This document shows, piece after piece, positions 15,793 through 19,503 of a stretch of 31,453 nt of DNA. Made by a program: the position numbers and the translations under genes. Location: the NCBI GenBank assembly GCA_002311455.1, contig DCAJ01000016.1, positions 10,027 to 41,479 of the forward strand, read 5' to 3'. Position 1 is the first letter of the stretch. Every line of letters starts with the position of its first letter. The DNA comes from Anaerolineales bacterium UBA1136 (GTDB lineage: Bacteria; Chloroflexota; Anaerolineae; Anaerolineales; UBA11657). The notes beneath the pieces are model-generated. The model did not search any database and was not told the DNA's origin. It was given only the letters and a program-made list of their open reading frames with translations.

Positions 15793-17442
15793 ATGGACCC
15801 TTTCACCCCAGCATTATTCTTGACTATTGGGGCGGTGGCTGTTGTAATTGGCAGCAATAGACCTTTTGGAATTTACGGTATCACTGCTTTAGTATCAATT
15901 GTTGCCGCAATAGCTGTAACTTTGCTACTAGGATTCAGGCTGCCAGCTACTGTAGTATTGTCTCCGTGGCAAATAGAAAATGTGTTCCTAAACTCTTTAA
16001 GTCTAACCGTAGATAAGGTATCATGGTTTCTTGCACTGCTGTTAGTGATGACAACAATGTCTTTGTTCTTAACTGGTCTTTCGGAGCGCCTAGAGATGTC
16101 TTCACAGGAGCGTGCTGTTTGTTTGGTGGTGGTAGCCTTGGCTTTGTTGACACTATTTTCTGACAATTTGATAACACTTGTATTGGCTTTGACTATCTCG
16201 GATATCTTTAATAGTTTGTTTGTATTTGTTTCGAATCGTAAAAGTAACCTACCCCAAGACTTTGCCAGAAATTTGCAGATTCCAGACATAGTACGTTTGT
16301 GTACCAACTTATTCTCGATAGGACTGCTGCTTCTAGTAGCATTGGATGATTATACGCTTGTACATACGAATAGTAAAACATTGTCAATTGGACATGTATC
16401 TATACTAATCGTTGTTGCCATGATTCGTCTAAACATATATCCAGTTAATGTTAGATTAGTAATAAATGATGCTGTTTCTACGGTGGTAATTACAGTTATA
16501 AGTTTGGTCAATATAGTTGTAGCTGTTGACATACTTACATCATTCGAACTGCAAAATTATGCCATCACTTTCCGTGGTTGGTTAACTATCGCTGCTATTT
16601 TGTCAGGATTGGTTGGTGGATTTAGATGGTGTATAGCAACCAATCACAGCGAACGCCTATACTCATTACTTTTAGCACAAAGTGGACTTGCTATTTTGAC
16701 TTTTGTTTGGGGTGGCAACTGGGCTGTAGTTGGTGTACTTTCGCATGTGATGGCTATAGCCGTGTCTGCTGTTGTGATTTATATGGGTGAGGGTCTTATT
16801 GGATCAGATAGTAACAGCTTTATCAAACCACTACTAACAGGTTTAGTGTTTGGATGTCAGCCTCTTACTGCAGGGTTCTTGGGTATATTTGTCTTGTACT
16901 CTGGACTAATGTCAAACTTGACCTGGGCAATATTTGTTATGCCATCTATGATTGTCATCAATGGTCTAACTATACTAGGTGGATTTCGTCTTTTACGGTT
17001 ATCTATTGTTGATATTGACACACAACCACCTCTTGTAAATGTTGCAAAGAGTTTAGGAGTGTGTGTTCCTTTGTTGGCTAGCGTAGCAGTTGGATTAGCA
17101 CCTGATAAATTTGCTTCTTTGATAGGTTTACCAAATTTGCCTGGCTGGAGTGGATTGTTTACCACTAGTGGACTCACTTCACTGGGAACTTCAGTGATTT
17201 CAGCGAGTCTCGCAATATTTTTGTGGTATTACAGATCCAAAGTCTTATTTGTTGTAAAAGATTTATCCGGATCCAGTCTTGTGTATGTTGCTGACTCGCA
17301 GTGGATACATTTAACTATCTGGAGGATTTATCGTAGTTTAAGTAAAAGCATTCATATGCTTGCAGACATACTTGAGGGTCAAGGTGGAGTACTATGGGCG
17401 TTAGTAATAGTATTTGCCATGCTGGTAGTTGCTGGTGGGTGA
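15793..17442 (+). CDS. Divergent NuoL/MrpA-like antiporter-type membrane subunit
   Basis: Roughly 14-16 hydrophobic segments; LTVDKVSWFL, SDNLITL, IRLNIYP and QPLTAGFLG echo the Proton_antipo pattern; amphipathic C-terminal helix plus a final TM resemble NuoL. Confidence 0.6.
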   Translation: MDPFTPALFLTIGAVAVVIGSNRPFGIYGITALVSIVAAIAVTLLLGFRLPATVVLSPWQIENVFLNSLSLTVDKVSWFLALLLVMTTMSLFLTGLSERLEMSSQERAVCLVVVALALLTLFSDNLITLVLALTISDIFNSLFVFVSNRKSNLPQDFARNLQIPDIVRLCTNLFSIGLLLLVALDDYTLVHTNSKTLSIGHVSILIVVAMIRLNIYPVNVRLVINDAVSTVVITVISLVNIVVAVDILTSFELQNYAITFRGWLTIAAILSGLVGGFRWCIATNHSERLYSLLLAQSGLAILTFVWGGNWAVVGVLSHVMAIAVSAVVIYMGEGLIGSDSNSFIKPLLTGLVFGCQPLTAGFLGIFVLYSGLMSNLTWAIFVMPSMIVINGLTILGGFRLLRLSIVDIDTQPPLVNVAKSLGVCVPLLASVAVGLAPDKFASLIGLPNLPGWSGLFTTSGLTSLGTSVISASLAIFLWYYRSKVLFVVKDLSGSSLVYVADSQWIHLTIWRIYRSLSKSIHMLADILEGQGGVLWALVIVFAMLVVAGG

Positions 17443-17443
17443 T

Positions 17444-18097
17444 ATGAATAGTGCTTCCCAGATTATTGAAGTACTTCTTCCGCTAGGGTCTGGATATGTG
17501 GCAGTTGTAGCGGTGTCTATTATGGCTCCCATATTAGTTGTTGTAGATGACAGAAGGTTGGTAATAGTTGCTTTAGCTGTGTTGTATCTATTTGTAAGCC
17601 TATTGTTCACTAATGTTTTGGCTCCTCAAATTGCTGGAATAAAACTGATAGTTTACATGGTAGTCTGGATTATCATTTTTATTTGCGTTCAGCAAAAAGG
17701 GTGGAGGTATGGCGAATACAGCAATGAAATTGGTGGTCTCATTGTTAGCGCTAAAATCAGATTCAGGGTTTTTGCGGTGATTGTAGCAGGACTTGTAGGT
17801 TGGCAATTGATAGAGACAGGCAAGTTGCCTTTTCCTATTGTTGCGGAATCCGTCACTTTCGGTGCTACACAACTGGTTTGTCAGGGATTGATGTTGCTAG
17901 CTATTACTCGACAGCCCTTGAAAGTTGGTATAGGTATACTAATTATGTTTAGTGGCTTCGGCTTATTATATTCGGCTGTTGAGCCGGCTCTTATGGTAGT
18001 AGGCATGCTTGGTTTAATAGATATTGCAGTCGCATTGGTAATTTGTTACTTAGAGTTGGTGTGGGAAACGAACACCAATAAAGAGGTGTCAACCTAA
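17444..18097 (+). CDS. Small polytopic membrane protein, HyfE/NuoK-like by inference
   Basis: About 7 TM segments. ATG at 17444 lies 1 nt after the upstream stop, and its stop overlaps the next start (TAATG). Family assignment rests on position and weak by-eye similarity. Confidence 0.45.
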   Translation: MNSASQIIEVLLPLGSGYVAVVAVSIMAPILVVVDDRRLVIVALAVLYLFVSLLFTNVLAPQIAGIKLIVYMVVWIIIFICVQQKGWRYGEYSNEIGGLIVSAKIRFRVFAVIVAGLVGWQLIETGKLPFPIVAESVTFGATQLVCQGLMLLAITRQPLKVGIGILIMFSGFGLLYSAVEPALMVVGMLGLIDIAVALVICYLELVWETNTNKEVST

Positions 18098-19503
18098 TGA
18101 GCTTGCCAATGTTGTTGATGACTATACCTGCATTTGTTGGAGTTCTTTTATATAACTTGCGACGCTGGATTTGGATTCAGGTTACTCTAGTGTGTGGGAC
18201 CATGTTATTACTATTTATGTTGGTTCAACAGGCTCCGGTCGATCAATTGGTGGTACTTGCGGGTAGAGATATGTATTTTAGATCATCATGGGAAATTCTA
18301 GGTCGGGCGTTCGTTCTTGTACCAAGTGACCGATCTCTACTCACTTTTATTTTTATCTCTGTGTTTCTGTTTGCTGTGAGCGGGGCAGTGGTGTCAGTAA
18401 CAACCTTATTTTATCCTGTAGTACTATCACTAGTCTCAATCATTATGGCAATAATGTTTGTGCATCCGTTTATCTACGCAGCACTTTTTATACAGATTGC
18501 TGCTGTGGCATGTGTGTTCATGATTGCTGATAACGTATATTCACGAGTAACAGGTGCTTTGAGATATCTATCGTTTGCATCTATTGGTGTACCATTTATA
18601 TTGATGGCTGGATGGCAGCTGGAGATGTACCAGGTGCGTCCAGATGACAATCTATTACTTTTACAGGCATCTTGGATGCTTGGCGTTGGTGTACTGATAC
18701 TACTAGCTGTGGTGCCTTTCCACTCATGGATACCGATTGTTGCACGTAGTTCCCCGCCTATCGTTGCTGCATTCGTGATAGCAGTGATTCAGGCAGTTAT
18801 GTTTTTCTTTTTGATAGATATGTTGGTCCAATTCGATTGGCTGCGTAATAATATGCAGTTTTTTCTTGCACTCCGTATAAGTGGTATGCTGATGATAGTC
18901 ACTGGCGGGGTATTTGTATTTGCTCAACGTAATTTTGGGGGCCTGATGGGATATTCCGCATTGATTGACTGGGGTTGTACTTTGGTTGCCCTTGGGCTGC
19001 GATTACCGAATTCTGTAGAAATTGCTGCAATGATTATATGCACACGTGTTATAGCCCTAATAGTCTGGGGAATTGGTGCAGGAACCATATTCAATAACAA
19101 TAATTCAACATGGGATGTGCGACTGCATATTCGACGAAATCCGTTTGCTACAGTCTCTATGATCGTAGGTGGCTTGTCACTGGCAGCAATGCCTTTGACG
19201 GCTGGTTTTCCTAGTCGATGGGCTTTATTACAAATGTTGGCTGGTATATATCCGAATTACGCAATAGTATTGCTAGTTGCAGGTCTGTGTGCTTGGATGG
19301 GATACATAAGGGTCATAGCAGAAACAGTTGATCTAACTGGCATAATTGATGGTGATATGTATAGAACCACATCTGAGAGTCGAGGAACGATTGGTCTAAG
19401 TGTATTTGTAGTTTTATCTTTAATAATATTCGGTTTAGTGCCTCAATGGTTGTATCCTAAGGCAGCTAGTATGTTTGAACATATAGCAATGATTCTAGTC
19501 TAA
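18097..19503 (+). CDS. Divergent NuoN/MrpD/HyfF-like antiporter-type membrane subunit
   Basis: About 14 TM segments; LAVVPFHSWIP, QRNFGGLMGYS and GGLSLAAMPLTAGF match the Proton_antipo_M pattern; GAGGTG SD upstream. Confidence 0.7.
   Translation: MSLPMLLMTIPAFVGVLLYNLRRWIWIQVTLVCGTMLLLFMLVQQAPVDQLVVLAGRDMYFRSSWEILGRAFVLVPSDRSLLTFIFISVFLFAVSGAVVSVTTLFYPVVLSLVSIIMAIMFVHPFIYAALFIQIAAVACVFMIADNVYSRVTGALRYLSFASIGVPFILMAGWQLEMYQVRPDDNLLLLQASWMLGVGVLILLAVVPFHSWIPIVARSSPPIVAAFVIAVIQAVMFFFLIDMLVQFDWLRNNMQFFLALRISGMLMIVTGGVFVFAQRNFGGLMGYSALIDWGCTLVALGLRLPNSVEIAAMIICTRVIALIVWGIGAGTIFNNNNSTWDVRLHIRRNPFATVSMIVGGLSLAAMPLTAGFPSRWALLQMLAGIYPNYAIVLLVAGLCAWMGYIRVIAETVDLTGIIDGDMYRTTSESRGTIGLSVFVVLSLIIFGLVPQWLYPKAASMFEHIAMILV

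Follow-up and report, generated by a model that had tools for sequence, protein, structure and literature searches.

The 31,453-nucleotide stretch of Anaerolineales bacterium UBA1136 analysed here (contig DCAJ01000016.1, positions 10,027 to 41,479), which we call the window and number from its first letter, carries at 15793-19503 three adjacent genes for membrane proteins, named A, B and C in the following, and it is the nature of this A-B-C module that concerns us. Gene A (15793-17442, + strand) is an open reading frame (ORF) of 549 amino acids that we assign to the NuoL/MrpA class of antiporter-fold subunits, gene B (17444-18097, + strand) encodes a protein of 217 amino acids with seven predicted transmembrane (TM) helices, assigned to the HyfE class of connectors, and gene C (18097-19503, + strand) encodes an antiporter-like subunit of 468 amino acids of the NuoN/MrpD/HyfF class. 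The TGA stop of A is separated by one base from the ATG of B, which homologues place at 17444 (the upstream alternative is a TTG at 17429), and the stop of B overlaps the start of C in the sequence TAATG. The three genes are translationally coupled, in line with the tight coupling noted in the first-pass annotation, made from the letters of the stretch, and from this coupling we infer that they form an operon. The presumed promoter region (15674-15792, + strand) is AT-rich and lies between gene A and a divergent YceI-like gene; it holds weak sigma-70-like matches, such as TTGATA-18-GATGAT at 15747-15776, that do not rise above shuffled sequence, and a TATAAT about 14 nt ahead of the ATG of A. 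Scans for promoters and terminators returned nothing exceeding the shuffled background. At the other end of the module the stop codons of C and of a convergent gene for a glycosyltransferase of family 4 (GT4) overlap by 3-4 nt (window 19500-19503), which leaves no space for a terminator between them.

Protein A has no Pfam match at E ≤ 1 and no NCBIfam match, and the profile of its family finds no PDB sequence even at E ≤ 10. The family is nevertheless a sizeable one, with 1359 clusters at 50% identity in an exhaustive profile search, 495 of them at E ≤ 1e-30, and it is unannotated. An AlphaFold2 model of A built on an alignment of 102 sequences has a predicted local distance difference test score (pLDDT) of 89.9, and the top 15 Foldseek matches of this model are E. 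coli NuoL, with TM-scores of 0.66-0.72 normalised to the query. In VIA comparisons the model aligns over 518 residues with MrpA of Dietzia (7d3u_A, Z 34.4) and, residues 1-549 on NuoL 2-584, with NuoL at a Z of about 34; overall, 420-520 residues align to NuoL, MrpA and MrpD. Subunits of the M, N and D types match residues 1-448 of A only, so that A has the additional helices that L/MrpA-class subunits carry at the C-terminus, namely a helix of 26 residues (503-528), a conserved turn E528-G-x-G-G-x-x-W535 and a final TM helix (530-548). The model retains the discontinuous TM7 (helices 199-213, 220-223 and 230-249) and TM12 (344-353 and 360-372) of the fold. The family profile also aligns by hhalign with NuoL, NuoM and NuoN over more than 400 columns at a probability of 97-98%, and on this alignment and the modelled fold (Z 34) A is a remote member of the PF00361 superfamily.

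Protein C is the only one of the three that Pfam recognises, with 54.9 bits against PF00361 (Proton_antipo_M; cut-off 21.5, E 1e-14), and it also scores, far under the cut-offs, against the NCBIfam models for NuoN, HyfF and EhbF. Searched against the PDB, its family profile finds chains of MbsH', NuoN, HycC and MbhH at E-values of 1e-21 to 1e-26, the first two being 6u8y_X (MbsH', 4.7e-26) and 8e9g_N (NuoN, 1.4e-25), and against E. coli NuoN, NuoM and NuoL it reaches an hhalign probability of 99.9-100%. Full-length alignment with NuoN and NuoM predicts for C a 14-TM core with discontinuous TM7 and TM12. The protein contains 22 arginines and one lysine, K455 in the C-terminal tail, as against 11 arginines and 13 lysines in NuoN of the same organism.

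Protein B has no Pfam match at E ≤ 1 (PF00420, Oxidored_q2, included) and no NCBIfam match, and hhalign of its family against the single E. coli sequences of HyfE, NuoK and NuoJ gives probabilities below 1%. Its AlphaFold2 model (pLDDT 77.7) has seven TM helices and no significant Foldseek match in the PDB. Among the AlphaFold models of Swiss-Prot proteins, good matches are confined to Rv0085 of M. tuberculosis and HyfE of E. coli, with TM-scores of 0.61-0.68 over about 200 of the 217 residues, and the next match falls to 0.25; the HyfE models alone give 0.66-0.68. The N-terminal half aligns repeatedly, if weakly, to NuoJ, ND6, NdhG and MbhD (Z 5.8-7.4; 6.2-7.4 for the first three), giving a protein with a NuoJ-like N-terminal half and three NuoK-like helices at its C-terminus. 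The likeness of B to HyfE and NuoK, as modelled, is thus one of fold only. The Hyf/Ehr/Mrp-like architecture suggested by the first-pass annotation, together with its labels 'NuoL-like' for A and 'HyfE-like' for B, finds support through structure prediction and profile comparison: A with MrpA and NuoL at Z 34, B with HyfE at TM-scores of 0.66-0.68, and C with NuoN, HyfF and MbsH' at E 1e-25.

A two-chain model of C and B scores 0.72, with 0.00 for the best control; this mark is reached by 58 of 80 solved complexes and by 2 of 110 mismatched pairs. The runs agree in at least 97% of the contacts, and the partner has a pLDDT of at least 72. In the modelled interface the TM5/TM6 face of C (residues 126-176, position 133 among them) lies against the last three helices of B (149-210), near E180 and D193. 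There is therefore strong support, at the level of the model, for C packing its TM5/TM6 face on the NuoK-like helices of B as NuoN does on NuoK. Since A belongs to the NuoL/MrpA class with a short lateral helix and an anchoring TM helix, the likely order of the subunits, by analogy, is B-C-A, with the short lateral helix of A reaching back over C.

What sets the module apart is the chemistry at the key sites of its antiporter-like subunits. Such subunits are the engines of complex I, of Mrp antiporters and of membrane-bound hydrogenases, and how protons move along their axis of lysines and glutamates is debated; to our knowledge, lysines carry protons in every characterised relative. We aligned the family profiles by hhalign with E. 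coli NuoL, NuoM and NuoN, taken from the K-12 record with the key positions verified, and counted residues in a balanced order-wide set of 27 sequences and, for A, also in a wide set of 102. All three references yield identical residue equivalences, at probabilities of 97-100%, and the motifs around the sites are recognisable (P-x-H-x-W after TM7 and P-L-T-A-G-F before the TM12 site). In A, the TM5 glutamate corresponds to T134, in a column of Ala, Thr, Val or Ser that never holds Glu, and three residues further on stands D137 (codon 16201-16203), an Asp in 26/27 sequences. The TM7 lysine is replaced by R212 (16426-16428), which is Arg in 27/27 and in 101 of the 102 sequences of the wide set, the TM8 Lys/His by I241/V242, and the TM12 lysine by I365 (16885-16887), in a hydrophobic column that never carries a charge; neither Lys nor Glu occurs in any column close to this site in the A family. 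In C, the TM5 glutamate corresponds to Q133 (18493-18495), a column that holds Glu in 17/27 sequences and Gln in 5/27, the window protein among the latter; the TM7 lysine corresponds to L202 (18700-18702), where Leu (20), Trp (3), Ser (2), Gln (1) and Val (1) are found and Lys never; the TM8 lysine corresponds to Q232, and the TM12 lysine to R374 (19216-19218), with Arg in 18 sequences, Lys in 4 and His in 3.

Two further conserved charges of C, R317 (24/27) and E/D291 (23/27), occupy histidine positions of NuoM and NuoN. R156 of C is the equivalent of NuoN K158 and NuoM K173, and because these have been placed at the cytoplasmic surface (PMC3046159) we leave it out of the axis. Mutation of the TM7 lysine, NuoN K217, NuoM K234 or NuoL K229, is reported to abolish function (PMC3046159). 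In B, the family columns of interest are K67 (21/27), E180 (25/27) and column 173, which is Glu in 20/27 and Gly in the lineage of the window. Neither A nor C, anywhere in its family, has the canonical set of TM5 Glu, TM7 Lys, TM8 Lys/His and TM12 Lys/Glu. The replacements that had been picked out by eye in the first-pass annotation (T134 with D137 nearby, R212 and I365 in A; Q133, L202 and R374 in C) were all reproduced by hhalign, and they extend across the families.

The module also stands apart from the complexes in which this fold is normally found. No NuoH, NuoD, MrpE/F/G or DabA is encoded by the neighbouring genes of the window, and DabA (PF10070) was found neither in the window as a whole nor in the host genome, which is 84% complete. 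A normal nuo operon is found elsewhere in the host genome, on contig C11, and no further PF00361 genes lie outside nuo in the host genomes. The most informative cases are eight high-quality genomes of one family that have no gene of the NuoH/HycD family (PF00146), two of them closed and 99% complete, and all eight keep A. They make up 8 of the 11 genomes sampled in family f3 of the Anaerolineales (G076, G148, G184, G202, G242, G266, G386 and G400). In the five of these eight that were checked, both closed ones included, the C orthologue beside A is the only PF00361 match of the genome, NuoD (PF00346) is found in 0/5, and NuoB (PF01058) is missing from four and present in one; these genomes appear to represent a lineage without complex I. 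With NuoH, NuoD and any other PF00361 protein missing from the checked genomes, there is no complex I, group-4 hydrogenase, Ehr or Mrp complex there in which A-B-C could be housed. Because closed genomes keep A-B-C as their sole antiporter-fold system, it is strongly supported that the module needs no redox or Mrp partner. The lack of an adjacent partner, claimed earlier for the locus, thus holds there and extends to closed genomes without NuoH, NuoD or other PF00361 proteins.

No Mrp-type operon was seen in any of 48 loci, which hold the three genes only, amid unrelated flanks (the Pfam models for MrpE, MrpF and MrpG were not searched separately), and no NuoH/HycD plus NuoB/NuoD module of the kind found in complex I, group-4 [NiFe]-hydrogenases or Ehr lies beside A-B-C. 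The genes upstream of A in Longilinea and in CP070639, considered as possible extra subunits, encode pyridoxal phosphate enzymes, a glycosyltransferase of family 2, an amidohydrolase and a mostly soluble protein of 523 amino acids, and they are not conserved. An orphan cluster of soluble complex I genes on contig C20 of the host (79628-82776, - strand, equal to L071:2629-5777) was likewise considered as a partner and is rejected, since the five checked A-B-C genomes without NuoH have no NuoD and four of them no NuoB. This cluster consists of nuoB (216 aa), nuoC (367 aa), a partial nuoD-like gene (237 aa) and a nuoI-like gene (231 aa) with two 4Fe-4S motifs, followed by a 111-aa ORF and a gene for a P-loop ATPase of the NUBPL/Mrp type; there is no nuoH or membrane subunit alongside, so that it forms an orphan set resembling the soluble Q module, besides the full nuo operon on C11. 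The canonical nuoM of that operon (C11, 26319-27199; L003/L004) shows two PF00361 matches in different frames, at 26319-26528 and 26387-27199, a split that may be a frameshift or an error in the assembly of the metagenome-assembled genome (MAG).

Gene A is single-copy and was detected in 112 of 121 sampled genomes of the Anaerolineales, with every one of the 17 families represented. When the whole phylum is sampled, the order has it in 27/27 genomes and the sister orders in 0/6, and it is essentially missing elsewhere. A, B and C are contiguous and unchanged in order in all 28 + 20 loci examined, and the same holds in Longilinea arvoryzae KOME-1 (L012:9938-13520) and in one closed Anaerolineales chromosome. 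It is thus strongly supported that A-B-C is specific to the order Anaerolineales, and its near-universal, single-copy presence suggests a housekeeping role there in ion or pH homeostasis. The ratio of nonsynonymous to synonymous substitution rates (dN/dS), taken against a genome of the same genus and another relative, is 0.27-0.28 for A, 0.15-0.18 for B and 0.16-0.20 for C, as compared with 0.07 for nrdJ, 0.10-0.13 for ftsZ and 0.17-0.19 for selB; with dS at about 0.8-1.1, near saturation, these ratios are approximate. One A-like match outside the order, a 720-aa protein of genome G002, is weak, has no B or C beside it and stands in an unrelated context, and we regard it as uninformative. A-like clusters in Candidatus Dormibacterota are suggested by the ESM Atlas and are unverified.

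The neighbour most constantly associated with the module is gene D (21965-23146, + strand), which encodes a soluble coiled-coil protein of 393 amino acids with no Pfam family. D follows C in 17/20 loci sampled across the order and in 7/7 of the named loci, either directly or after two GT4 genes. Its conservation extends over the class, with D present in 27/27 genomes of the order and in 5/6 sister-order genomes, nearly always just upstream of selB, and is thus more widespread than A-B-C; in G006, G166, G085 and G103 it lies on a different contig from A. We examined D as the missing soluble partner of the membrane module and reject it as an obligate one, because five of the six sister-order genomes have D without A and the two are unlinked in four genomes. 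D is probably a conserved neighbour and not a subunit of A-B-C.

Among described systems the closest in layout is HyfD-HyfE-HyfF of formate hydrogenlyase 2 (FHL-2) in E. coli and Pectobacterium. A-B-C shares with it the triplet of a large subunit, a HyfE-like protein of about 216 residues and a second large subunit, in like gene order and sizes (479/216/526 aa in E. coli, 549/217/468 here); the fold of B resembles both HyfE and Rv0085 of the M. tuberculosis pair Rv0085/Rv0086, and the NCBIfam matches of C include HyfF. HyfDEF has been described as three add-on membrane subunits of FHL-2 that are dispensable for H2 production, HyfE being related to NuoK (PMC7384014). HyfDEF, however, sits in a hydrogenase operon with HyfB, the NuoH-like HyfC, HyfG, HyfH and HyfI, and genes of this kind are missing around A-B-C and, in some hosts, from the whole genome; the key lysines are replaced in A-B-C, A has the C-terminal lateral helix of the NuoL/MrpA type, and neither A nor B shows detectable sequence similarity to Hyf proteins. 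With Mrp (Mnh/Pha) antiporters the module shares independence from redox chemistry and a corresponding set of subunits: the NuoL-like MrpA with its lateral helix, which is the best structural match of A, the NuoN-like MrpD and the NuoK-like MrpC. Mrp is the only precedent known to us for the antiporter fold working as a stand-alone secondary transporter. It needs six to seven subunits, MrpE, F and G and the C-terminal domain of MrpA or MrpB included, whereas A-B-C has three genes, and other residues take the place of the conserved lysines, on which the homologous subunits of complex I depend (PMC3046159).

Complex I itself offers counterparts for all three folds in NuoL, NuoK (with NuoJ) and NuoN, and the predicted B-C interface and the broken TM7 and TM12 are alike. 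A-B-C differs from it in having no NuoH, NuoA or Q/N module and in not conserving the TM5 Glu, TM7 Lys, TM8 Lys/His and TM12 Lys. A NuoL-like subunit at work outside respiration, and in this respect analogous to A, is found in DabB of DAB, the DabA/DabB vectorial carbonic anhydrase. In DabB2 the TM5 Glu is lost (Ile151) and the subunit does not itself supply the TM12 Lys/Asp site, where a finger helix of DabA inserts a Glu that replaces NuoL K399/D400 (PMC13144422). In DabB, though, the TM7 Lys/Asp pair is intact and the partner is the soluble DabA, whereas A-B-C has two antiporter-like subunits and a HyfE-like connector.

The reading towards which we lean is that A-B-C is a self-standing heterotrimeric complex of HyfD-E-F/Mrp/complex I stock that handles ions driven by a gradient; for the functional part of this reading alone our confidence is lower. 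The module would derive from the same stock as the membrane arms of HyfD-E-F, Mrp and complex I. It would not work as a canonical lysine-relay proton pump, and a primary pump is unlikely, because both an energy-input module and a lysine relay are lacking. Most likely it would act instead as a secondary device, exchanging cations for protons or conducting ions. The chemistry would then fall to carboxylates (the E173 column and E180 in B, the E133 column and E/D291 in C, D137 in A), and the arginines would serve as fixed counter-charges along the old hydrophilic axis. Buried charges do stand at or next to the old functional sites in all three proteins: D137, R212 and the R237 column in A, K67 and the two glutamates in B, and the Glu133 column, E/D291, R317 and R374 in C. 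Several points weigh against this reading. The transporter role is deduced purely from the fold and the conserved buried charges, which could be structural salt bridges; arginine is a poor proton carrier, so that secondary coupling to protons would need another route; two of the acidic sites are neutral in the lineage of the window (Q133 in C and G173 in B), which makes the acidic path thinner there than in most of the family; the passing score of the B-C pair may reflect the memory that the model has of NuoK-NuoN interfaces; and A is undetectable in 9 of the 121 genomes of the order.

The most serious competitor, which we judge unlikely, is that the complex transports nothing and is a scaffold or pseudo-pump, an inert platform for membrane or envelope machinery or an anchor for a cytoplasmic protein such as D, with its charges forming structural ion pairs. 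Such a role would sit well with the disappearance of every canonical proton-carrying lysine, with the lack of an energy source encoded with A-B-C, with the many conserved Trp, Gly and Pro positions, residues typical of structure, and with the synteny of D in most genomes. It is harder to square with membrane charges kept exactly at the old functional sites (D137/R212 in A, E180 in B, R317/R374 in C) and with the discontinuous TM7 and TM12 retained in the model of A, both of them costly for a scaffold, and the version that involves D meets the difficulty that sister orders have D but lack A and that four genomes carry the two genes unlinked. Further down in probability, we think it improbable that A-B-C is the membrane part of a larger unrecognised complex whose partner is encoded elsewhere and perhaps supplies residues in trans as DabA does. 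That the TM12 site of A is hydrophobic throughout the family speaks for this, as do the DabB2 precedent for a charge given in trans combined with loss of the TM5 Glu (PMC13144422) and the orphan soluble nuoB-C-D-I cluster on another contig of the host; but no conserved extra gene besides D and selB appears in 48 loci, DabA was not found in the host genome (84% complete), and NuoH, NuoD and, in 4/5 cases, NuoB are absent from the checked A-B-C genomes of family f3, which makes a partner of the complex I, hydrogenase or Ehr type impossible there.

Two other explanations would make the module ordinary. Were the key residues of a canonical proton-pumping or Mrp-type module missing in appearance only, through misalignment of divergent sequences, the case for a new chemistry would fall away, and errors are conceivable for a protein like A that has no sequence-level match to Pfam or the PDB. 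We consider this very improbable, given that three independent profile alignments agree at 97-100% with recognisable motifs at the sites, that the core of C contains no Lys at all and that the A family has no Lys or Glu near the TM12 site. The idea that the genes are left over from an ancestral hyf, mrp or nuo operon and are now decaying could appeal to the loss of catalytic residues and to the far divergence of A and B from all known families. It is refuted for practical purposes by intact frames, dN/dS of 0.15-0.28, the fixation of new invariant residues, and single-copy presence with unchanged gene order in 112 of 121 genomes of 17 families. The first-pass annotation had likewise set decay aside, a judgement that the dN/dS values and the presence in 112/121 genomes bear out, and it would have given way to canonical Glu/Lys at the key sites or to membership of a described complex encoded elsewhere; both were examined and neither was found. 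Its wording, an uncharacterised transporter or scaffold with different ion chemistry, goes as far as the evidence does. Beyond the self-standing ion-handling complex that we favour, one may suppose, tentatively, an unrecognised class of self-contained machine, descended with three subunits from the complex I/Mrp arm, in which the lysine relay has been swapped for a fixed axis of arginines and carboxylates and which does a non-canonical job essential to the physiology of the Anaerolineales; such a class might sense or transduce the membrane potential, transport a cation or anion in some new way, or serve for electrostatic coupling.

What is new here is that a derivative of the HyfDEF/Mrp/complex I membrane arm stands alone with three subunits and without the key lysines. 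We found no description of the A-B-C module in the literature, and database records name C either a hypothetical protein or a 'proton-conducting transporter membrane subunit' and have both A and B as hypothetical proteins. The module is a natural and strongly conserved version of the fold in which arginine or apolar residues have taken the place of the lysines and the redox partners are gone, with purifying selection kept up in nearly all sampled members of a large, environmentally abundant order. Being a self-standing set of three genes, it lends itself to expression and reconstitution. Should it prove to move ions, the fold would be shown to work with other chemistry; should it not, the module would be a plain example of a pump that became a scaffold. 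In either event, two sizeable families of hypothetical proteins, A and B, neither of which has a Pfam family, acquire a fold and a context.

The window itself is ordinary chromosomal DNA from the MAG of a marine member of the Anaerolineales (2.0 Mb, 84% complete), of the same genus as 'Anaerolineales bacterium UBA3499'. Read from left to right, it holds the dcw cluster (murD to ftsZ), nrdR, nrdJ, the divergent YceI-like gene and then A-B-C, which is followed by two convergent GT4 glycosyltransferase genes, gene D, selB, an amidohydrolase gene, parB, parA and jag. DNA data sets with matches to the operon are marine, seawater and hydrothermal-vent metagenomes; no RNA data set with matches is listed for the operon or for gene C. 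At 4237-6588 of the window, one ORF fuses a complete MurC (Mur ligase N, M and C domains) to MurB (FAD_binding_4 and MurB_C), as confirmed by Pfam. Between the dcw cluster and A-B-C, at 12216-14741 and preceded by nrdR, lies the gene for a class II-type ribonucleotide reductase of 841 amino acids with a C-terminal TSCPD domain.

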